IMG/VR virus record: IMGVR_UViG_2901966883_000003
Source: a virus
Taxonomy: Duplodnaviria; Caudoviricetes
Direction: 5' to 3' (one strand)
DNA length: 64,000 nucleotides
Part shown: positions 3,056 to 30,151 of the stretch, piece after piece
Numbering within the stretch: position 1 is the first letter of the stretch
Layout of the letters: each line of letters begins with the position of its first letter
Notes under the pieces: generated by a model
What the model was told of the DNA's origin: nothing
The model's input: only the letters and a program-made list of their open reading frames with translations
Databases searched by the model: none
Program-made: the position numbers and the translations under genes

Positions 3056-3700
3056 TTAAAATACGTGTTTTTGAAATTGTTTTACCGCCTCATCCTTCTT
3101 ACCTTGAGTCCACAACTCAGTTATTAAGTAATCCCTTTTCACAATGCTAAAGAAATTAACGTCATAATAATCAGCATCACTCATATCAATATTTTTTTCT
3201 TTCATATACTCATAAATTTCATTTGACCATCTAACTCTTGAAATATCCACAGCATAACTAGCTACCATACCAGGATAAACTTCATCATTCATAAGTTGAC
3301 CTAGTTTTTGTAATTCATGTGTCAAAGCCAATTCAAAACTTGACACTTCTTTACCTTTTTGTTTTTGTTCATACATCCACACCGTTTCTTTAAAATCTTT
3401 TTCATCAAGCTTCATGTTTTCTAAAATTCTTGTGTCATTCAAGTCTAGATTTTCAAACTCTTCTTCGGCATCGAAATCTTCTAGTGTTTCAATAAGTTGC
3501 TTTTCTAAACTTGCAAAAATTTCTTTTTCTGACTTACCTTCTAATTCATCTATATCGTTGTAAGTGTAGTAAATTCTACTGTCGTATTGACCTACAATAG
3601 TAGCCTCTAGGTCATTGGTATATATATTTATATCTTCGATATATAAACCCCACGCATTAACCACGTCATCCATAATTCCAAAAATTTCTTCGTTTGTCAT
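3056..3700 (-). CDS. acidic hypothetical protein
   Basis: ORF track; GAGGT RBS. Confidence 0.8.
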   Translation of the reverse strand: MTNEEIFGIMDDVVNAWGLYIEDINIYTNDLEATIVGQYDSRIYYTYNDIDELEGKSEKEIFASLEKQLIETLEDFDAEEEFENLDLNDTRILENMKLDEKDFKETVWMYEQKQKGKEVSSFELALTHELQKLGQLMNDEVYPGMVASYAVDISRVRWSNEIYEYMKEKNIDMSDADYYDVNFFSIVKRDYLITELWTQGKKDEAVKQFQKHVF

Positions 3701-3772: not shown

Positions 3773-3801
3773 ATTATAACTTCTTAATTCTTACTTGTCA
3801 A
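3773..3801 (-). promoter_or_regulatory. consensus sigma-A promoter
   Basis: TTGACA-17-TATAAT on minus strand. Confidence 0.75.
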
Positions 3802-3816
3802 CACTAAAATTTATTT

Positions 3817-4197
3817 TTATTTTATTATTGTAGTAGTACCTTTAAAATCACTTGGTACACTTTCAATTTCAATACCCTTAGCACCCACACCTTGCTCACT
3901 AACCACTCTTAAATTCTTGTCGTTAGGATAGACAACCATATGAAAATCTTTTTTATTGTCATCATAGTATTCTAACGTGAACTTTTTAGTTTTGAGTATG
4001 TTACCACTTTGCAAGTCTAAATTCTTGACGTTATAAGTCAATTCTTGACGTTGCTTTTTGATAACTTTTTCTTGACGTAAATTTTCTTTTTTGAGTTGCT
4101 TATTTTGTTTAATGTATTCATGATTAGATACACCTAAGCACACCACACCTATTATTGTTATTACATTAGTTATTTTTAAAATATTTATTTTATTCAT
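3817..4197 (-). CDS. membrane-anchored or secreted hypothetical protein
   Basis: N-terminal hydrophobic segment followed by coiled coil. Confidence 0.7.
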   Translation of the reverse strand: MNKINILKITNVITIIGVVCLGVSNHEYIKQNKQLKKENLRQEKVIKKQRQELTYNVKNLDLQSGNILKTKKFTLEYYDDNKKDFHMVVYPNDKNLRVVSEQGVGAKGIEIESVPSDFKGTTTIIK

Positions 4198-6040: not shown

Positions 6041-6295
6041 TTATATTTCTTCTTGAAATTCTAGCAACTGATATTCAATATCAGACAATTCACTATGTTT
6101 AGGTGCTAGCTCAATCATTAGTCTAGCAATTCTACGCTTTCTTCTTCTTGGTTGAACCTTTACACCAACTCTAGCAAGGGTACGTGTTGTGTATATACTC
6201 TTACTATCCATTAGATTAGTGATGGTATTTTTACTATCACTATCAACTTTACGACTTATCATAATTGTGTCTAAATTTTGTACTATCTTTTTCAT
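6041..6295 (-). CDS. hypothetical basic protein, first gene of early operon
   Basis: ORF track; AAGGAGG RBS. Confidence 0.75.
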   Translation of the reverse strand: MKKIVQNLDTIMISRKVDSDSKNTITNLMDSKSIYTTRTLARVGVKVQPRRRKRRIARLMIELAPKHSELSDIEYQLLEFQEEI

Positions 6296-6309
6296 GATAA
6301 GTACCTCCT

Positions 6310-6790
6310 TAATTTAATTAGATTTTTATATTAAACACTACTGTTGAATAGTGCTTAATAACAAAATCTAATTCATAGATTTTGTTAAGTTAGTCTGTAT
6401 TCTTTTTCTTATCATAGGTTAGAATACAGTAAGATTATATTCTATGATAAGGAGAGTCTCTAGGTATGCACTTGCCCTCTCGTACCAGCTTATTACTAAG
6501 TACCTAGAGTCTGACAGGTCAACATGGTCACAGTATTCCACGTCAGAATGCACTTATTTCTAAGGGTGCTTTTTTAACTTTCACAAGTACCTTCTTACAC
6601 CCTACAAATGACTAGGATGTAAGCTGGTATCATACTCCAGCGACCGAGAGTCTCACTCCGTCTCTGCTGTTGCTACTAACGACTTTGCTATACTGGTATA
6701 GCAATACACGTACTCGCAACGGATAACGAGGGTTAGCATGTACCTCGTACTTCTTGAAGGATGACCTTCTTAAAGTAAAATAAATTATTG
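6310..6790 (-). ncRNA. large structured leader or non-coding RNA with pseudoknots
   Basis: Many helices (e.g. 6395-6403/6421-6429, 6408-6417/6442-6451, 6458-6466/6501-6509); GC-richer than flanks; lies downstream of tandem promoters. Confidence 0.6.
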
Positions 6791-6791
6791 A

Positions 6792-6804
6792 GTTTTGAAA
6801 GAAC
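6792..6804 (-). promoter_or_regulatory. boxA-like antitermination site
   Basis: GTTCTTTCAAAAC versus Firmicute rrn boxA GTTCTTTGAAAAC (1 mismatch). Confidence 0.5.
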
Positions 6805-6807
6805 GCC

Positions 6808-7211
6808 GTACCTATAAGGTACATTTAAATGATAACTTTTTGTTTCTCACTTGTCAAGTACTTTTTTATTTTCTTGACAAGTGAGAAGCTTTAAAAACTT
6901 ATCACTTAAATGTACTTTTTAAGTACATTTTCAATTTATCATACTTCTTCTAACTTGTCAACTCTTTTTTTTGAAAAACTTTTAAAAAAATTCTGAAGCC
7001 TTAATTTTTAAGGCTTTAAAGTTTAATCAAGTAGAAGAAGATATTAAATTTTCATAGAACGTGTACTTTTAAAGTACGCTTTTATAATAACCTTTATTTT
7101 TTAGCTTGTCAAGTCTTTTTTTTAAAAAACTTTTAAAAGCCTTTAAAGTATTAAAATCGCGTACCTAACAAGTACAATAAACACTTTAAACCCTTATTGT
7201 TAGCTTGTCAA
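6808..7211 (-). promoter_or_regulatory. four tandem leftward sigma-A promoters, each with a GTAC-N7-GTAC operator
   Basis: TTGACA (minus) at 6852-6857, 6956-6961, 7107-7112, 7206-7211; operators at 6808-6822, 6912-6926, 7063-7077, 7161-7175. Confidence 0.7.
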
Positions 7212-7366
7212 CAGTTTTTATAATATTTTTTGAAAAAAGATTGCTAACATCTAGTATAAAAACCCTTGAAAACCTTGATATAATAACGTTTGTAAGGTAT
7301 AATAAAAATAAGAAACTTGCTTGTTTCTTCTATTATATATAAAAATGAAAGGTTGAAATAATTTAT

Positions 7367-7723
7367 ATGTTGTATAATGAAAAATTAGTGCTAGATAATC
7401 TTAAGCTATTAAGGAATGAAAAAGGATATACACAAGATTATGTATCTAAATTTTTAGGTATTGCTCGTGGCTCTTATGCAAAAACAGAAAACGGTATTAA
7501 TAAAATAACCCTTGATATAGCTTTAAAATTAAGTAGATTGTATAATACAACTGTCGAGGAATTATTGTGCTTATCTAATAATAAAAATAATAAAAATCTT
7601 ATCAATGATAAAGAATTAGACACCATTTTGAAAACTGATGTTACATACAATGGTAAAACGCTTACAAGTACTGATATAATAGCATTGAAAGCCTTTTTAC
7701 AAGGCTTGACTTCTAGCAAGTAA
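7367..7723 (+). CDS. XRE-family HTH transcriptional regulator (probable repressor)
   Basis: LKLLRNEKGYTQDYVSKFLGIARGSYAKTENG HTH_3 signature; divergent from the early promoters. Confidence 0.9.
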   Translation: MLYNEKLVLDNLKLLRNEKGYTQDYVSKFLGIARGSYAKTENGINKITLDIALKLSRLYNTTVEELLCLSNNKNNKNLINDKELDTILKTDVTYNGKTLTSTDIIALKAFLQGLTSSK

Positions 7724-8304
7724 ATTATAAGATGGTATTATTCAATCACGATTAAACCCTTATTTAATAAGGCTTTAATCGTTTTCATTTACTTTATGAA
7801 AACATTGTGAAAGCTTGATATAATAATGTTTTTGAATTGGTGTATTTTGTGAAGCTTTATTTTATGCTTATGTTTTTGTTATAAGTGTTTTATTATAATC
7901 TTATGGTGGTATGGTGCTATAAATGCTATTATATAAGGCTTTTCATAGTGTTATATATGGTTAGTATTATAGGTGTCTTATACGTGTATATATATGCAGT
8001 TAGTATGTATAATCTATATAATGTAAGCGTGATAAACATTGATATATCAAGGGTTTGAGCGTATGCAGTTTGAGTGAATGGTACTAGATGTTAATATAAT
8101 GTTATGCTTATCGTTATTAGTGCTTATTGTGTTGTTTTCTACTATAATATACATTTATGAGTTAACTTAAAGCTTTGACGGCTTGCAATGTTGTTACATC
8201 TAGTTAATACGCTAACTTATTGTAAGTAAATAAGCAGCTGCATCAAGTAGATGTTATTACTAACTAAAAGTAAGTATATAAGAGTGTGTTTATATGGTTA
8301 GTAG

Positions 8305-8479
8305 TTTAGAATAGTTATAAATTAGTGAATGTTATAAGGTTGTAAGTGTTATTACTTTAGAATAATTACAAGTTAGTATATTTTATTGAATTGTATTCTT
8401 TATTGGTTTAGAAAAATTATAAGTTAGTAATTATTATTGGTTTCTTGAATTTATTAGTTTAGAATTGTTATAAATTATA
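8305..8479 (+). repeat. four ~22-bp direct repeats with exact 51-bp period
   Basis: TTTAGAAWWRTTAYAARTTA at 8305, 8356, 8407, 8458. Confidence 0.75.
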
Positions 8480-8481
8480 GA

Positions 8482-8497
8482 TGTTTCACGTGAAACA
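8482..8497. promoter_or_regulatory. chromosomal-type parS (Spo0J/ParB site)
   Basis: Perfect palindrome TGTTTCACGTGAAACA. Confidence 0.8.
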
Positions 8498-9831
8498 TAT
8501 TATTTTAAATATAGTATTGTGTTATTGTGTGGAGTGTGGTATAATAGAGGGTTTGGTGTAACTAATTTTATTAATAGTGCAAAATATAAGTTATTCTTAT
8601 AGATACCATAAATTTTACTTATGAATGTATCTTCACTCTATTAATTTAAAGAATGCTTGATTTTATTCTGAAAACGCTTTCATTTTTAATCTTTTTCAAG
8701 CAGCTAAACATCTACTTTTTTAGCATTCATAAAATAACTAGAATTATTTTACATAGAGGAAGCCCCCTATTTATCTCAAATCTTTTAAATTTTGCACAAC
8801 CTTTCAGATACAGTAGCTCTCCCCACACACCCCAAATTCCTACCACACACCACAAATTCCATTCCCACACACCCCCATTCTAACTGTCTTACATTGCGTT
8901 TTTACTCCTAATTTAGCGGTGTTAGCAGCCTTAAAAGGCTATTCACCATCCCCTTCTTACATAAAATGATACTAACACCCCTTATTAAGCTCAAAAACAC
9001 TATAATCTCACACCTATACTTCTCATATCACTCATACACTACAACCAATACATTACATAACACAAATCTTATAATTCACAAACTCAATTCCAGCCATCAC
9101 AATCACTCCAATTATAATCTTCACAAAATCTTCACAATTTCCAGCTGCAAATTCACTCTACTTTTATAAAATATTTTGCTTTTTCATAGATTTTGACCTT
9201 TTTAGCTCGCTATAATTGCACTCAAAAATCACTCAAAATACAAGCTAAGACACATCAAGTTTTGTCTATAAATCATTGACAAAAGTCCCTGTGAGCTACA
9301 CCCTTGCAACAATACACTCGCAGCCACTCTACTGGTACGAAAATGGAAAGTTCTGATTTCTCTTTCATTCTTCCAAAAAATCTACCTTAATATGCCCATG
9401 TAAACAGTGAATTTTTCACTCACTCCAATTTACTTTTCTCCATACTTTACTATAACTTTATCTTATCTTTATAACATTATTACCTAGTTTTTATTCAGAT
9501 TTTATATTCATGCCTCTAAAATTACCCTTAATAAGCGACACATCTATATCTAGCTTTACAAGGTGGTAAACTTTATGTTTTTACCCCTAAAATCACTCAT
9601 TTCAGAAGTTATCATATTAGCCCCTTATTATCACGCTTACATTGAGTTTTCAAAACAAAATCCTAAAAATAGAATACCCACAAATGCTAAACAGACCTTA
9701 TTTATATGGTTTTTAAGACTTATATGACAATCACTCCCTTATCATGCGTTAAAATACCGTATGTAAATCTATAATGCTGCTTATTATGGTGTAATTCATG
9801 ATACGACTATGATATTGTTCCTTAATTAAGA

Positions 9832-10006
9832 CAAAATAAAAGACCGATACAAATTAATGTAACGGTCTGGAACTCAATTTAGTAACAAACTATGGAGTGT
9901 GATGTTACTAGTATTTTAAGACTAACTCTATAGGCAGAAGGGTTAGTCGGAAAAATATCACATTGGTGACACAGGCGGGCAAAAAGGAGAAAGCCCCTGT
10001 ATCACC
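9832..10006 (-). ncRNA. candidate small RNA with four hairpins
   Basis: Extended -10 TGaTATAAT (minus, 10011-10019); three hairpins; terminator-like hairpin 9841-9868 followed by a U-rich tract. Confidence 0.4.
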
Positions 10007-10032
10007 TTTTATTATATCACTATTTAGCTTGA

Positions 10033-10479
10033 TTAGATAGGTCTTAAGCTCTTATCTCTATCAAAATACATTCTGACAATATCATCTAACTTGTCGATTT
10101 TATACGCCTTAGTGTCGGGATGTGTAGTCCAATAATTCACCAATGAAAATGTAGCCTCGTTATCGTATTTGATATTCTCTACAATCTTATATCCGTCAAA
10201 CACTCTTCTTGTAAGGTCTTTTAACCTTGCTGATGTGTATCTCTTGTCATCTAATACTAATGGGTCGTCAATGTATTCGCATAAATCATTAAACTTCGCA
10301 CTCTTCTTGCTCTTGTTTGCGTCTAATTCCATATACGTATCAATCACTTCGTCGAAACGAACTAGGTTTTTACTACCACATACACAGCACATATTCGCAT
10401 AATCTGGGTTTTCTGTTCTACATTCTTTACAAAGTTTCATATTAACCATTCTCCCTAAGTAATTTCCTAAAGTTTTCAT
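10033..10479 (-). CDS. zinc-ribbon protein with ParA-partner-like C-terminal domain
   Basis: CKEC...CCVC; C-terminus aligns with 10980-11426; likely start at MKLCKEC (10440). Confidence 0.7.
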   Translation of the reverse strand: MKTLGNYLGRMVNMKLCKECRTENPDYANMCCVCGSKNLVRFDEVIDTYMELDANKSKKSAKFNDLCEYIDDPLVLDDKRYTSARLKDLTRRVFDGYKIVENIKYDNEATFSLVNYWTTHPDTKAYKIDKLDDIVRMYFDRDKSLRPI

Positions 10480-17262: not shown

Positions 17263-17841
17263 TTGAATAAAGTGGTAACTAATAAAGTTAAAGGTGGAGA
17301 AAACATATCTGACACAAGTTTTGGGAACTTCTTAGATGATGTAGCCAACTACCTTTTGGAAAGTAAAGACATTGACTCGGGTAGAAAAATTGAAGATACA
17401 TTCTACCGTAATGAAAAACATTATAAGAGTTCATATGCAATGGGAAAAAACACAGCTGTTGATACGGATTTGACTGAATGGAAGATGAATGAACAAACCA
17501 TTGAGGATAGCGTGTTAGATGATTACTCCAGTGTCAATGGTTACCTGAATAGATTGTTTAGCACAGATAATCTTGACAGAATGGAAATTAGAAAATTAAT
17601 AATGAACATAGGTAAACTCGAAAAAGTTACAAGTAAAGAGTTACTATCAGCATTTGAATGGTTTGAAGATGTTTTGAAAGATAGGCTTAGTGAAAAAGAC
17701 TTAGATTTCGTTTCTCTATTCAAAAAATACGACAAGATAGCTGATATTTCAAAAGAATTAAATGTATCATCACAAGCAGTAAGCAATAAGCTGACTAGAG
17801 TATGTGACAAAATTAAGAAAAATCTACAAGAAAAACAGTAA
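17263..17841 (+). CDS. sigma-factor-like (region 4 HTH) transcriptional regulator
   Basis: C-terminal IADISKELNVSSQAVSNKLTRV HTH; frame is open back to 17161, so the true start may be upstream. Confidence 0.65.
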   Translation: MNKVVTNKVKGGENISDTSFGNFLDDVANYLLESKDIDSGRKIEDTFYRNEKHYKSSYAMGKNTAVDTDLTEWKMNEQTIEDSVLDDYSSVNGYLNRLFSTDNLDRMEIRKLIMNIGKLEKVTSKELLSAFEWFEDVLKDRLSEKDLDFVSLFKKYDKIADISKELNVSSQAVSNKLTRVCDKIKKNLQEKQ

Positions 17842-21062: not shown

Positions 21063-23331
21063 TTATCTCCAAAAGAAAGCCGAAAATTTCGCTGAATGGA
21101 TAGGTTTTTACAGACAAAACCCACATCGTTTCATGGAAGACTATTTTGGTACTCATCTGCATCCATTTCAACGTTTCTTATTCTATATGATGAATAAGGA
21201 CGATAAATTTATGTATATCGCAGCACGTGGTCGATTTGGTCGTCTAGTCAAGTAATTGGTTAGATTATTAGTGCGAAATTAAGCTGGAAACCTAAGTCGA
21301 AAGATATGGTAATCAGAACCGAAGGCTAGTTTTAAAAGACTAGACAGGGGCAGAGCATAGCAACTGAAACTCACTGAGAATATAATGTTGCCACGAGGTC
21401 GCACCACCCTAGCAAGTCAAGTTGTGGGTGAAAAGATATGCCATTCCTAGTCGAAAGATTAGGGCTGAGAGATAAAAAACTCTCAAGCTCATATGAGTAA
21501 ATAGCAAGGTGAATTGATTTGCCTAGTTTAGTAGAAATATTAAACCGTAATCGCAATAGAAAACTGGAAGCCTAAGTCATTTGATAAGGTAATCAGAGTG
21601 GAAGGTTAAAGGTAATATGTTAACCACACGCAGAGCATAGTGGCTGAAACTTGTAAAAGAATATAATGCCACCAAGAGATTGCGACATCTAAACAAGTTA
21701 AGTTGTAGATGAAAAGATATGCCGAACTTATAGGAAACTATAAGAAATAAGAGATAAAAAGCTCTTATGGTAACAAACTGAAATCGTTCTTGATTGCGTG
21801 GTATTGCATTGTTCGCTGTGTTTTATATCCAGGAACGAACATTGCACTTGCCGCTGGTACAAAAGGACAGGCTGCAAAAATAATATCTGAAAAGATTGAC
21901 AAATTCTATGATGAAAATGCAGCGTTGCGATTTGAAATAGGGAATAGACGAGATAATATCAAAACAAGTTATAACGAAGCATACGTTAAGTTTAAAAACG
22001 GTTCTAAGATACAAGCTGTAACTTCTAACGATAATTCACGTGGTATTCGTGCCAATATCTTAATTGTTGATGAGTTCCGTATGGTTAACAAAACAGTATT
22101 AGACAAGGTTTTAAAGCCATTCTTGAACGTAGTTAGACAACCAAGATATTTAACTTTGCCAGAATACAAAGATTATCCAAAAGAAGAAAACAAGCAGATT
22201 TATATTTCATCTGCATGGTGGAAATCACATTGGTCTTGGGACGAATTTCAAGCATATTTAAAGAAAATGCTTAAAGGCGACAAATATTTCGTAGCAGATT
22301 TGCCATATCAGTTATCAATACATCATGGTTTGTTAACAAAACAGATTGTTAATGATGAAAGAACCAGTGATAGTTTCGACCAAAATGGTTTTGATATGGA
22401 ATATGAGGCTATATTTGTTGGTGAAAATGACAAGGCTTACTTCAAATTAGACAAGTTAAATAAGATTAGAACATTAAATAAGGCTTTTATTCCACCTACA
22501 AGTCGAGAATATTTAGAGAATAAGAACTTATCACAACCTAAAAAGTTGTCAAATATGCCTAAACGTAGGGATATTGATGAAATAAGAATTATCTCACTAG
22601 ATATTGCTCTTATGGGTGGTAATAAAAACGTTAAAAATGATACTTCCGCATTTACATGTTTCAGATTAATAAGAGATGGTGATAGCTATCGTAGAGAGGT
22701 TGTTTACCTTGAAAGTATTAACGATAGTATCTCCAGTCAGAATTTAGCTATTAGATTGAAACAACTATATAACGACTTCCAAGCCGATTATGTAGTAATG
22801 GACGCAAACGGAAATGGTTTAGGTGTTTTTGACGCATGTGCAACAGTTCTACACGACCAAGAACGTGATGAAGATTATCCAGCTTGGGCAAGTATGAACG
22901 ATGAAGCAACTAATGAACGTACAAAAACACATGGTTTACCTATTGTATATACGGTTAAGGCTTCCGCAGCATTTAACAATGAAATTGCTCAATCACTAAA
23001 TTCAGCTATTGAAAGTGGGAAATTGAGATTACCAATTAACCACATTGAAAAGCGTGAAGATTTAGTTAACTCTGGTGGTTTCTTAAAGAAGTCAGTAGAG
23101 GAGCAACAAAAAGAATTGTATTCATTTAACCAAGCAACAGCTCTAGTTAATGAGTTGGTTAACCTAGAATACGAGGTGCGTGAAGGTAAAATCCGTATCA
23201 AAGAAGTAGGTACAACAACAAAAGATAGATATAGTTCTATCGCATACGGTAACTTCTATGCTAATGAGTTGGAAAAAGATTTGAGAGCAGAAGAAGCTAG
23301 TCGTAATTTATTGGATTTTATATTTGTATAA
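21037..23331 (+). CDS. terL: terminase large subunit; three exons 21037-21231, 21505-21510, 21781-23331 (583 aa spliced)
   Basis: Splicing restores Walker A IAARG-QG-KSFLIAW; Walker B LIVDEF; nuclease-domain acidic motifs SLDIA, MDANG, KDRYS; start may be ATG 21046. Confidence 0.92.
21232..21504 (+). ncRNA. group I intron 1 (273 nt, no ORF)
   Basis: Exon ends in U, intron ends in G; P3 GTGCGA/TCGCAC; P7 GAGCATA/TATGCC; Q-like GGTAATCAG. Confidence 0.88.
21511..21780 (+). ncRNA. group I intron 2 (270 nt, no ORF)
   Basis: U|...G boundaries; IGS GATTT-GCCT pairs the 3' exon AAATC and the 5' exon AGGT; P3 TCGCAAT/ATTGCGA; P7 GAGCATA/TATGCC. Confidence 0.9.
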
Positions 23332-28596: not shown

Positions 28597-30151
28597 AAGT
28601 GTTGAACCATTAATAAAAATTATAATAAATTAAATAAAAGTCTATCAGAAAGCGTAAAAATATAGGTAGTCTTTAAGACAATAAATCCAAAACCATAAAA
28701 CGTCTTCATTTTAATATGAATATATATTGGCTTACTTCTATAAAATTAGTATAATATAGAAGATAAAATTATTATACCAATTTAGTGAAATAAAGTGAGG
28801 TGGCATATATGATTAGAACGCAAAAAGTAAGACTTTATCCAAATCAAACCATGAAGAAAGTTCTTGATGATTTATGTGATTATCGTAGATATTGTTGGAA
28901 TCAAGGGTTGGCTTTATGGAATGATATGTATGATAGTTCCTTAATTTTAGATGATAAAAAGCTGAGACCTAATGAGTACAAGGTGAGGAAAGAGTTGGTA
29001 GCTAATAAAGAAGATTGGCAATATCAATTATCTTCCAGATGTTTGCAGTTAGCGAGTGTAGACTTGGGCAAAGCGTGGGATAACTTTTTTAATAAGGCAT
29101 TACCAGATTGGGGCAAACCTAAATATAAGTCTAAAAAAGCTCCTAGACAAGGTTTTAAAACTGATAGAGCCAAGATTGTCAACGGGAAACTAAGACTTGA
29201 CAAACCACACAGAATCAAAACTTGGTATGATATTAAGTTTAAAGGTGCTAAGAGCTTAGATGGTGATTTAAAAGTTGTATCAATCTATCGTGAAAATGGT
29301 AAATACTGGGCTAGTTTACCTTTTGAAGTTGAAATAGCTAAGAAAGATAAAACTTGTAAGAAAACAGCAGTTGATGTTAATGTAGGTCATTTCAACTATA
29401 CCGAAGGTAAAGTTAATACATTGCCTAATCATCTAAAGAAACTCTATAAACGTATCAAACATTACCAACGTCAGTTGGCTAGAAAACGTGTTGTTAATGG
29501 AAAGAAAGCTACTCAATCGCATAATTATGTTAAAACGAGAGCCAAGTTACAACGTGATTATCGTAAAGTGGCTAATATCCAACATGATATTATTCATAAA
29601 TTTACAACTAAATTAGTAAGTGATTACGACAAAATCGTAATCGAAGATTTAGATGTGAAGAAAATGCAGATGACACACGTTGCTTCTAAAGGTTTACACC
29701 GTTCACAATTTGGTTATTTTAGGCAAATGTTGACCTATAAAGCTGATTGGTATGGTAAGGAAATAGTCTTAGCAGACCAATATTATCCAAGCACACAAAG
29801 ATGTTCTGAATGTGGATATATCAAGACTGGCGAAGATAAAGTTGGTCTTAATGGTAATCGTAAGCATGGAACAAAACATAACGAATATATTTGTTATGAA
29901 TGTGGTTCGATTATGGATAGAGATGAAAATGCAGTTATGAATTTATTAAATTTAGTAGCATAAAAATACAACGGGGTGGGCTACACCCTTATGCTATCAG
30001 AGCTAGTCAATGTCATTACCCTTTAGTTAGGATATGGGAATACTAGCGTTGACGGTAGTAAATAAAATCTAGGAAAGGAAAAACTATATTTCTTTCTAAT
30101 AATATAGAACTAATAACTATTGGTCTATATTATTCTACATTTTATATAGCG
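28597..30151 (+). mobile_element. tnpA-less TnpB element including probable omegaRNA region (29964-30151); ends inferred
   Basis: Non-coding 190 nt after tnpB; joining the flanks recreates an AAAGGAGGTG RBS for the next gene. Confidence 0.5.
28800..29963 (+). CDS. tnpB: TnpB RNA-guided endonuclease (IS200/IS605/IS607 family)
   Basis: N-terminal HTH, RuvC triad AVDVN/IEDL/DRDENA, zinc ribbon CSECG...CYECG. Confidence 0.93.
   Translation: MAYMIRTQKVRLYPNQTMKKVLDDLCDYRRYCWNQGLALWNDMYDSSLILDDKKLRPNEYKVRKELVANKEDWQYQLSSRCLQLASVDLGKAWDNFFNKALPDWGKPKYKSKKAPRQGFKTDRAKIVNGKLRLDKPHRIKTWYDIKFKGAKSLDGDLKVVSIYRENGKYWASLPFEVEIAKKDKTCKKTAVDVNVGHFNYTEGKVNTLPNHLKKLYKRIKHYQRQLARKRVVNGKKATQSHNYVKTRAKLQRDYRKVANIQHDIIHKFTTKLVSDYDKIVIEDLDVKKMQMTHVASKGLHRSQFGYFRQMLTYKADWYGKEIVLADQYYPSTQRCSECGYIKTGEDKVGLNGNRKHGTKHNEYICYECGSIMDRDENAVMNLLNLVA

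Follow-up and report, generated by a model that had tools for sequence, protein, structure and literature searches.

A densely folded, boxA-bearing leader RNA predicted at the head of the early operon of a Ligilactobacillus salivarius phage-plasmid

Our comparative sequence analysis indicates that the minus strand from 6823 to 6296 encodes a real, densely folded non-coding RNA of ~528–530 nt, counted from a predicted transcript start. We think that this RNA probably serves a Ligilactobacillus salivarius phage-plasmid as the untranslated 5' leader of its leftward early operon, and the label that best describes it is a Nus/boxA-loaded structured leader, lying between four strong, predicted repressor-controlled promoters and the first early gene. 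The original prediction of a ~500-nt structured non-coding RNA heading this operon is supported by fold z scores, covariation and the intergenic position of the element. It had placed the RNA at 6310–6790; the helices of that interval stand, but the strand that it implied does not, the RNA being on the minus strand and extending from ~6823 to 6296. Positions are those of the window, by which we mean the whole 64-kb stretch of DNA that was analyzed. The transcription unit comprises the following features.

6296–6823, minus strand: whole leader RNA, from the predicted start at promoter P1 to the base before the first ATG (promoter scan, fold z, covariation, no conserved ORF)
6790–6807, minus strand: boxA-like element GGCGUUCUUUCAAAACUC, directly 3' of the operator O1 hairpin
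6857/6829, 6961/6933, 7112/7084 and 7211/7183 (–35/–10), minus strand: predicted tandem sigma-70-type promoters P1–P4 (promoter scan)
6808–6822, no strand assigned: putative operator O1, GTAC-N7-GTAC, starting 7 nt past the –10 of promoter P1
6912–6926, 7063–7077 and 7161–7175: putative sister operators
6304–6310, minus strand: Shine-Dalgarno (SD) sequence AAGGAGG of the first early gene
6293–6295, minus strand: ATG of the first early gene
6041–6295, minus strand: first early gene, 84 aa, no family
7367–7723, plus strand: divergent XRE-type HTH gene, 118 aa (PHROG transcription regulator/repressor families, E 1e-14)
7275–7303: predicted promoter of the XRE gene (promoter scan)

The RNA occupies part of an intergenic region (6296–7366) and overlaps a GC island (6439–6836) that reaches 45% GC against a window mean of 34%. 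The region folds more stably than its shuffled versions, with z scores of –5.6 and –6.6 for the two strands, which bears out the proposal that the helix density is beyond chance, and the full minus-strand leader gives z –6.5. No ORF is conserved across the leader, and a 64-aa minus-strand ORF (6630–6824) was rejected as a gene, having no ribosome-binding site and no conservation in two relatives, L008 and L096. Covariation was assessed against metagenomic relatives and plasmid pMP1046B, in alignments of 6 and 13 distinct sequences that are related by descent and recombination. In the alignment of relatives, 97.6% of cells are paired and 11 pairs are doubly changed, a level reached by 0/500 shuffles, and slid controls give 0–2 doubly changed pairs. 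One of the other leader types, type D, independently shows 22 compensatory changes in 121 pairs. The non-Watson-Crick cells of the six fully paired helices are all G.U on the minus strand, equivalent to A.C on the plus strand, with no case of the reverse; GAAA tetraloops in types A–D and a UUCG loop in type E likewise appear on the minus strand only. Because these tetraloops and G.U pairs fit the minus strand alone, we assign the RNA to that strand. The signs expected of a structured RNA are therefore all present: compensatory changes, strand-specific G.U pairs, RNA tetraloops and no conserved reading frame.

The ends of the RNA are predicted. Three Logan contigs start within ~10 nt of the predicted start site, but we rejected contig ends as evidence for a transcript start, since other contigs break at the borders of the shared terminal hairpins and branching of the assembly graph where mosaic modules meet is a better explanation. 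A promoter/terminator scan found no minus-strand terminator between the leader and the first gene.

Relatives share the layout of this region, with one to four promoters of the same kind at the same position, and they differ in what the leader contains. There are at least five interchangeable leader types, which have in common only the boxA and two terminal hairpins; the leader cores and the operators are mosaic and type-specific. The existence of at least five interchangeable core versions suggests that the core carries a type-specific function. On the other hand, ~400 nt of the leader core are missing from one relative (L015), which implies that the core may be dispensable for expression of the operon. 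BLAST searches of GenBank phages with the leader and with the leader of one relative gave no match, the conserved terminal motif retrieved only two already known relatives from IMG/VR, and the window holds no second (paralogous) copy. A search of 185,579 genomes and JGI metagenomes with a 19-base motif of the terminal hairpins H1 and H2 returned 74 matches, 71 by chance and 3 from true relatives, all metagenomic; the motif plus both hairpins was found in 0/185,579 representative genomes.

From 5' to 3', the structural elements of the leader are the following.

6588–6776, minus strand: 5' domain, type A-specific (centroid fold)
6749–6776, minus strand: hairpin Pa (centroid fold)
6727–6747, minus strand: hairpin Pb (centroid fold)
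6669–6720, minus strand: hairpin Pc, three-tier, with ACCAG in the apical loop
6638–6666, minus strand: hairpin Pd (centroid fold)
6588–6629, minus strand: hairpin Pe (centroid fold)
6550–6569, minus strand: hairpin P1, a covarying stem with a GAAA tetraloop cap and a conserved A6 run before it
6510–6547, minus strand: hairpin P2 (UCUGAC/GUCAGA) around the invariant UGUGACCAUG, closing pair U-A, A-U or G-C
6458–6509, minus strand: hairpin P3, stem 6458–6466/6501–6509, 5/9 pairs covary, 100% paired
6452–6481, minus strand: pseudoknot PK, GAGAG 6477–6481 (P3 loop) with CUCUC 6452–6456, 2 covarying pairs, 100% paired
6395–6451, minus strand: switch-like module, in which stem S2 (6442–6451/6408–6417) has 2 covarying pairs
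6319–6385, minus strand: terminal module, common to all leader types (13 sequences, 100% paired)
6376–6385/6361–6370, minus strand: hairpin H1
6348–6360/6329–6341, minus strand: hairpin H2, 2 covarying pairs and invariant G.U pairs (A.C on the plus strand)

Within the 5' domain, compensatory changes are seen in Pa, Pc and Pd, and a U.G to U-A change in Pe, among the window, L008 and L096. A 6-bp loop-loop contact, CUGGUA/UACCAG, involves the Pc loop in 3/3 type A sequences but is absent from types B and C. Hairpins P1 and P2 were assessed by eye rather than with a counting tool because the MAFFT columns lose pair register there; the P1 stem takes the states CUUA/UAAG, CUUG/CAAG, CACGU/ACGUG and CAUGC/GCGUG (with a U.G pair), its loop is a GNRA on the minus strand only, and L096 carries an extra hairpin inserted in P2. 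The stem of P3 was part of the original prediction and is substantiated by five covarying pairs across relatives, and the P3 loop contains an invariant AAUAAGCUGGUACG (6481–6494). The same loop forms PK with a partner that lies 1 nt past P3, and this pairing exists in three states (GAGAG/CUCUC, GGGUG/CACCC and GGGAG/CUCCC).

The 3' part of the leader offers alternative pairings. In the switch-like module, UGUAUUCU (6421–6428) can pair with the upstream AGAAUAUA, forming a nested hairpin (6436–6441/6423–6428), or with the downstream AGAAUACA (stem S1, 6395–6403), and both alternatives remain compatible with the relatives through C-G to U.G changes. In the terminal module, AAAAUCUA (6319–6326) is an alternative partner of the 3' arm of H1, and the three strands covary together, from CUA/UAG/CUA to CAA/UUG/CAA. 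The two terminal hairpins end ~20 nt 5' of the ribosome-binding site. Type D has an anti-SD, UACCUC, that reaches across the H1–H2 region to pair with its SD, GAGGUA.

These alternatives bear on two pseudoknots that had been proposed from the window alone, where the three listed pairings are all exact. The first was an H-type knot built from 6395–6403/6421–6429 and 6408–6417/6442–6451. Its second stem is upheld by two covarying pairs, and its first is plausible, being invariant bar one G-C to G.U change, but competes with the nested hairpin. Only a 4-nt loop is available to cross a 10-bp helix; given this geometry and the competing nested hairpin (6436–6441/6423–6428), the knot is more likely to be one state of a switch than a static structure. 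The second pseudoknot, 6483–6492/6620–6629, is not supported: the pairing is exact only in the window and in L096 and is broken in L008, the closest relative, types B and C offer nothing equivalent in spite of an invariant loop, and its partner overlaps the conserved local hairpin 6588–6629.

On the minus strand, the boxA GGCGUUCUUUCAAAAC (6792–6807), ~16 nt past the predicted start, matches the rrn consensus of Bacillus subtilis, AUGAUCUUUGAAA. A small hairpin, GUACCUUAUAGGUAC (6808–6822), lies just 5' of it (≤2 nt), in the position of boxB. Direct evidence that B. subtilis NusB (BsNusB) binds such a boxA, located right after a small hairpin, has been available only since 2026; in E. coli the consensus reads UGCUCUUUAACA (PMC13753749). 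Across the leaders the boxA takes the forms GCGUUCUUUCAAAAC, UUGAUCUUUCAAAAC, UGGCUCUUUGAAAAC, UGGAUCUUUGAAAAC and ACGUUCUUUGAAAAC, types A, B, C and E all have a variant of it, and a hairpin precedes it in every leader type for which upstream sequence is included. The boxA of type D is weaker, CGUUCUUUGGACAA, and is altered in relative L019. The window contains four copies of the core motif where 0.59 are expected; the other boxA-like matches (2100–2110, inside an ORF, 17671–17681 and 21329–21339) were set aside. By RNAalifold, the segment that follows boxA forms only a weak, G.U-rich pairing with the SD region. Neither the leader nor the 6.3-kb part of the operon that the window covers yielded an intrinsic terminator, so any need for antitermination would rest on Rho or polarity.

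All four promoters have the form TTGACA-17-TAnnnT with A/T-rich upstream tracts, match 10–11/12 consensus positions and point into the leader. Each has its own GTAC-N7-GTAC operator 7–8 nt 3' of its –10, over the start site, and O1 doubles as the 5' hairpin of the RNA, the one in the boxB-like position. The palindromes vary among relatives (GTTCC..GGAAC, TTGTCGA..TCGACAA), a divergence that is expected for repressor specificity. The divergent XRE-type HTH protein is the candidate repressor, which may bind the GTAC operators. A model that brings these elements together is that, when the repressor leaves the operators, host RNA polymerase would fire from the promoter array, and NusB and S10, once bound to boxA in the emerging transcript, would turn the enzyme into an rrn-like, termination-resistant complex with RNA-chaperone activity. 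Polymerase modified in this way could traverse the ~500 nt of folded, untranslated RNA and go on to transcribe the long early operon. The folded domain may shield and insulate the 5' end of the message, and the 3' module, with its two mutually exclusive helix sets, could set the stability, processing or translation of the first gene.

The RNA had been said to fit no family, and this proved correct. Against Rfam 15, the window gave no match at gathering thresholds (ROOL RF03087, GOLLD RF01998 and all others), positions 6100–7500 on both strands with E up to 10 gave only chance-level miRNA and snoRNA matches, and leader types B–E gave none. The suggested kinship with ROOL and GOLLD thus found no covariance-model match. 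Those RNAs are alike in being large (400–800 nt), multi-helix and pseudoknotted, in lying on mobile elements and prophages of Lactobacillales and in having no known function, but they are stand-alone genes, often near tRNAs, rather than boxA-led operon leaders. A put-like antiterminator had also been considered. HK022 put and B. subtilis EAR resemble the leader in being cis-acting structured RNAs just 3' of promoters, and the leader could in the same way keep polymerase elongating. However, put consists of two hairpins in ~70 nt and EAR of ~120 nt, both acting without boxA, whereas the leader is 4–7 times larger, bears a Nus-type boxA and has no downstream terminators that we could find. The idea was therefore roughly right about the direction, antitermination, and wrong about the means, since the signal is a Nus-factor boxA behind a small hairpin rather than a factor-independent RNA of the put type.

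A close parallel in design is the rRNA operon leader (P1/P2, boxB, boxA, Nus-factor antitermination complex), which has the same tandem strong promoters with A/T-rich upstream tracts and the same hairpin directly before a Firmicute-consensus boxA, followed by a long untranslated, folded RNA. It differs in that the phage-plasmid RNA is not rRNA and continues into protein-coding early genes, and in that every promoter carries an operator. Among phages, T7 carries a boxA downstream of its early host promoters A0–A3 (Savalia et al., 2010, cited in PMC3709561). The T7 early control region and the lambda nut sites are like the leader in that a host-type boxA closely follows tandem early promoters for host polymerase. 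Neither phage has, as the phage-plasmid does, a folded RNA of ~450 nt separating boxA from the first gene; lambda requires N protein and a boxB that binds N, whereas we identified no N-like protein in the phage-plasmid, and the host here is a Firmicute.

An untranslated leader does not by itself explain why five unrelated, equally ornate cores occupy one slot. In an alternative that we consider unlikely, the folded core would be cut out near the two terminal hairpins as a stable, abundant, trans-acting RNA, for instance one serving plasmid maintenance or copy number, a decoy against host defense or a self-assembling 'ornate' RNA, and the boxA and rRNA-like promoters would serve bulk output of untranslated RNA, as they do for rRNA. 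The copied layout of the rRNA operon (tandem strong promoters, hairpin and boxA, large folded RNA) argues for it, as does a core much more elaborate than 5' stabilizers require; with no spacer between them, H1 and H2 could stack to ~23 bp, possibly creating an RNase III-type site. There is also a precedent in the host species. Next to an HTH gene, the L. salivarius megaplasmid pMP118 encodes an extremely abundant and very stable 520-nt lncRNA whose function is unknown (Cousin et al., 2017, PMC5643018). Its deletion lowers plasmid copy number, its ends were mapped by circular RACE and its published members are ≥96% identical (PMC5643018). It is like the leader in host species, plasmid location, proximity to an HTH regulator gene, length and non-coding nature; it differs in being a discrete RNA with mapped ends that lies upstream of its HTH gene in the same orientation, whereas the leader is divergent from its regulator gene and predicted from sequence. 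We rejected kinship between the two, as blastn at word size 7 of the pMP118 intergenic region (LSL_1885 locus) against all leader types and the whole window gave only chance matches of 14–24 nt; none of the leader types has sequence in common with the megaplasmid RNA, which contains no boxA motif. No terminator or mapped cleavage site separates core from mRNA, and the natural deletion variant L015 also counts against a core that acts on its own.

Rather improbable, in our view, is that the leader is a sensor, in which the loops AAUAAGCUGGUACG and UGUGACCAUG and the pseudoknot bind a protein, an RNA or a small molecule, and binding picks the 3' helix set and gates translation or decay of the first early genes. 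Two loops that are invariant in types A–C amid covarying stems speak for such a sensor, and two X-X'-X arrangements permit exclusive helices, one of them with three-way covariation. Judged as a riboswitch or attenuator, the leader matches no known aptamer family and contains no terminator to act as expression platform, yet it does have two mutually exclusive helix sets and, in type D, the anti-SD/SD helix (UACCUC/GAGGUA). Against gating, the SD is free in both alternatives in types A–C, and five unrelated cores argue against one conserved ligand.

We give still less credence to sense/antisense control of the kind known from plasmid copy control or phage immunity, whereby a short plus-strand countertranscript would modulate the early operon by base-pairing to the leader at complementary loops, the variable cores being determinants of incompatibility or immunity specificity. 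Such a transcript would start near 6455 and end at a plus-strand hairpin and T-run at 6550–6575 or, in type D, at a hairpin and T-run at the 5' edge of the leader. These terminator-like sites inside or at the edge of the leader, the –10-like hexamers on both strands at ~6434–6448, the mosaic, type-specific cores and operators and the plasmid-like nature of the replicon argue for it. But the promoter scan did not pick up the candidate plus-strand promoter, whose –35 is poor, a U.G pair of the type B minus strand would become a C.A mismatch in the plus-strand 'terminator' stem, every strand-informative pair favors the minus strand, and the conserved A-run may equally belong to the minus-strand RNA. 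Finally, that the region acts as DNA (an origin of replication, a segment for attachment or of host derivation, or clustered inverted repeats that bind proteins) is scarcely credible: it forms a GC island within an AT-rich replicon, near partition and replication genes, with many inverted repeats and with H1 arms and a third copy that could be protein half-sites, but strand-specific pairing already largely refutes it, the G.U versus A.C asymmetry, GNRA/UUCG loops and pseudoknot covariation being meaningless for DNA, and 0/185,579 representative genomes contain the 19-base terminal motif with both hairpins.

A structured leader of the early operon remains the reading that we prefer. The element represents a well-supported, previously undescribed family of large structured RNAs that comes in at least five modular versions and features GNRA and UUCG loops as well as a covarying pseudoknot, in a region that is unannotated in the published plasmid record. 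It would be the first Firmicute mobile element known to us with an rRNA-type hairpin-boxA before its early genes, and the promoter/operator array is a candidate strong, repressible expression module for lactobacilli. A cultured strain, JCM1046 (pMP1046B), carries leader type D, which makes experiments possible at once. A bolder and quite unlikely proposal is that L. salivarius phage-plasmids copy the design of the rRNA operon so as to make, in bulk and at the start of the early or lytic program, a large ornate RNA that is freed at the terminal hairpins and acts by itself. If this were true, it would constitute a new class of large functional phage RNA, and the five cores would be type-specific effectors, for example in replicon maintenance or incompatibility, or decoys deployed in conflicts of phage with host or with other phages.

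The folded element lies in the 1,071-bp intergenic region 6296-7366, where a GC island (6439-6836) reaches 45% GC compared with a window mean of 34%. We propose that it is a leader RNA of about 528 nt, running on the minus strand from about 6823 to 6296 ahead of the leftward early operon. The original prediction of a non-coding RNA with two pseudoknots at 6310-6790 was largely right, although its strand and extent had to be corrected and one of its pseudoknots was rejected, another being found instead.

Features of the locus (window coordinates)
6295, minus: first ATG of the leftward small-gene block
6792-7303: control region with tandem leftward promoters and operators
6808-6822, 6912-6926, 7063-7077, 7161-7175: GTAC-N7-GTAC operators, predicted from sequence
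7275-7303, rightward: promoter of the XRE gene, TTGATA-17-TATAAT
7367-7723, rightward: XRE-type HTH gene, candidate repressor of the GTAC operators
6501-6509/6458-6466, minus: helix P3, five covarying pairs
6442-6451/6408-6417, minus: S2, 10-bp pairing, two covarying pairs
6477-6481/6452-6456, minus: pseudoknot GAGAG/CUCUC, missed by the original prediction, two covarying pairs
6421-6429/6395-6403, minus: S1, 9-bp stem, invariant apart from G-C to G.U
6376-6385/6361-6370: hairpin H1
6348-6360/6329-6341: hairpin H2, one covarying pair in the six-sequence set and two among all 13 sequences

The nearest IMG/VR record is a 127-kb virus with terminal repeats, and a portal-region protein search matched SPbeta-like large siphophages of Firmicutes. 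Because a DNA search of plasmids identified a close relative (locus L005) as the circular plasmid pMP1046B (129,218 bp) of Ligilactobacillus salivarius JCM1046, we assign the window to an L. salivarius phage-plasmid. In the relevant passages of its 2014 publication, pMP1046B is an extrachromosomal circle by experiment and a 'putative chromid', with no description as a phage-plasmid (PMC4165912). The same 129,218-bp sequence (NZ_CP007648.1, locus L099) is entered as a virus in IMG/VR. In the public plasmid record the leader's intergenic region carries no annotation. Beyond the XRE gene, 7724-10033 (about 2.3 kb) holds short ORFs only and includes a GC island (8747-9020) whose GC skew is very strongly negative.

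Four agreeing lines of sequence evidence indicate that the leader is read from the minus strand. Four minus-strand promoters (7211, 7112, 6961 and 6857) match TTGACA-17-TATAAT at 10-11 of 12 positions, each with a GTAC-N7-GTAC palindrome 7-8 nt past its -10. Hairpin caps, GAAA in leader types A-D and UUCG in type E, appear in the minus-strand reading only, and their stems covary. Across the six helices with complete pairing, the cells that depart from Watson-Crick pairing are all G.U when read on the minus strand (A.C on the plus strand), with no converse case. The fourth line is GGCGUUCUUUCAAAACUC (6790-6807), directly 3' of the first hairpin. Relatives have an equal promoter-palindrome layout but different palindromes, as expected of repressor operators; the operator sequences also recombine independently of leader type. 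The stretch 6826-6908 is a large imperfect palindrome in which two TTGACA hexamers face each other around P1, and it accounts for spurious plant-miRNA matches in the permissive Rfam scan. Within the leftward operon, a perfect 12/12 consensus promoter, TTGACA-17-TATAAT (3773-3801, minus), sits between genes 3817-4197 and 3056-3700.

The rrn boxA of B. subtilis, AUGAUCUUUGAAA, lies directly 3' of a small hairpin and is bound by B. subtilis NusB (2026; PMC13753749); in E. coli the consensus reads UGCUCUUUAACA (PMC13753749). A boxA-like sequence follows a hairpin at once in each leader type with upstream sequence to compare, judged against these B. subtilis and E. coli forms.

boxA-like sequences by locus
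Window: CGUUCUUUCAAAAC
L008: UGAUCUUUCAAAAC
L096: UGUUCUUUCAAAAU
L010: GGCUCUUUGAAAAC
L014: GGAUCUUUGAAAAC
L016: UGUUCUUUUAAAAC
L020: CGUUCUUUGAAAAC
Type D, weaker: CGUUCUUUGGACAA, altered in L019

The window contains four copies of the core motif where 0.59 would be expected; the copy at 2100-2110 is inside an ORF.

We gathered 22 related loci (L and G numbers) through the HTH gene, the 84-aa first gene and its contigs, a motif scan of metagenome DNA and the plasmid record. Every one, in leftward-operon orientation, carries 450-600 nt of GC-rich sequence between promoter array and first gene, and this leader stretch is a mosaic among them.

Leader types
Type A: window, L008/L009, L096; 87% identity over 570 nt
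Type B: L010-L013, L016, L018, L066; only the last ~270 nt common to type A
Type C: L014; only the last ~270 nt common to type A
Type D: G001, L005, L019, L086, L094, L098; only the last ~95 nt in common
Type E: L020; only the last ~95 nt in common

The cores of types D (L004/L005/L019/L086/L094/L098) and E (L020:1-581, its hairpins capped by UUCG) are unrelated to that of the window, and equally GC-rich and folded. L094 lacks 78 nt of the leader, GC hairpin included, and L096 has an additional hairpin within the P2 loop. No reading frame is conserved across leaders, and the window's 64-aa ORF is missing from its closest relatives.

Compared with shuffled sequence, both strands fold far better (z -5.6 and -6.6), and the complete minus-strand leader reaches z -6.5. 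For the 3' domain common to types A-C (window 6321-6575, minus), a hand-drawn structure scored over six distinct sequences had 97.6% of its cells paired, and 11 of its pairs had changed at both positions; the mean for shuffles was 5.1 (0/500 at the observed value) and slid controls gave 0-2. All three pairings of the original prediction are exact in the window, and covariation favours P3 and S2 among them. The newly found pseudoknot occurs in three states, GAGAG/CUCUC, GGGUG/CACCC and GGGAG/CUCCC. Of the predicted H-type pseudoknot, S2 covaries but S1 competes with a nested alternative, UGUAUUCU being common to S1 and a pairing with upstream AGAAUAYA. The nested form is the one preferred by RNAalifold and in the minimum-energy fold of 6310-6830; the full-length leader fold forms S1. 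As S1 and S2 both at full length would leave a 4-nt loop to cross a 10-bp helix, we infer a pair of exclusive states rather than a static knot.

The long-range pairing 6483-6492/6620-6629, the second pseudoknot of the original prediction, was not supported. It is perfect in the window and L096, but the partner in L008 is UACUA-CUUA, nothing complementary exists in types B and C though the loop AAUAAGCUGGUACG is invariant there, and 6620-6629 overlaps Pe, a hairpin that each of the three type A leaders retains. The invariant loop probably serves some other purpose. In the 5' half of type A (6588-6776), the window, L008 and L096 differ by compensatory changes in Pa, Pc and Pd, and by a U.G to U-A change in Pe. 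Type D, folded independently, has 121 pairs, 22 of them with compensatory changes.

All leader types end with H1 abutting H2. The invariant AAAAUCUA (6319-6326), 3' of H2, pairs equally well with the 3' arm of H1, and the change of H1 from CUA/UAG to CAA/UUG is accompanied by a change in this third copy. This is suggestive of two mutually exclusive helices, short of proof because there are only two, tightly linked states. The Shine-Dalgarno (SD) sequence of the first gene is free in both states in types A-C; in type D an anti-SD UACCUC, 5' of H1, can pair with it.

The layout has four strong promoters with an operator apiece, followed by a hairpin and boxA, a large covarying fold with a pseudoknot, two conserved hairpins and the SD; from it we infer a four-step mechanism. 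Derepression would fire the promoter array; NusB/S10 loading on boxA would protect polymerase from terminating early along some 500 nt of untranslated RNA; the leader fold would stabilise and insulate the message; and the 3' module would tune processing, stability or translation. The second step would work as in rrn operons and as at the phage T7 boxA, which lies behind that phage's early promoters (PMC3709561).

This mechanism leaves five different ornate cores in one slot without explanation, and that diversity therefore keeps three other readings alive: a stand-alone functional RNA, a sensor, or cores that act as antisense specificity determinants. We think it unlikely that the leader RNA acts on its own. 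Locus L015 (Logan ERR11869360 contig, L015:1-233, set against L010:1876-2500) lacks some 400 nt, either through a genuine natural deletion or as an artefact of assembly. It joins the 5' GC-rich hairpin to the P3 3' arm at a GTATA microhomology, losing boxA and most of the core and keeping the switch module and H1/H2; the core may thus be dispensable for simply expressing the operon. No terminator was found between leader and first gene and no convincing one in 6.3 kb of the operon within the window, which argues against a classical attenuator and leaves the put-like element of the original prediction without an obvious target.

Searches of every leader type against Rfam 15, at gathering and permissive thresholds, gave zero matches, which excludes the suggested ROOL/GOLLD kinship as well as OLE, known riboswitches, tmRNA and RNase P. 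Elsewhere in the window, Rfam's Transposase-1 RNA (RF03014, 71 bits; 29994-30052, plus) lies directly 3' of a transposase/TnpB-like gene (28800-29963). Next to an HTH gene, the L. salivarius megaplasmid pMP118 encodes a 520-nt lncRNA that is stable, extremely abundant and of unknown function (PMC5643018). Lying upstream of that gene (NC_007930.1 178186-179024, locus L101:2687-3525), it is a striking biological neighbour of the leader, yet its locus lacks a boxA and resembles none of the leader types in sequence. Homologues of the XRE gene and promoter of the window (7265-7777, 70-78% identity) do occur on several L. salivarius megaplasmids. The leader belongs to an undescribed RNA family, for which the safest classification is a boxA-led structured leader.
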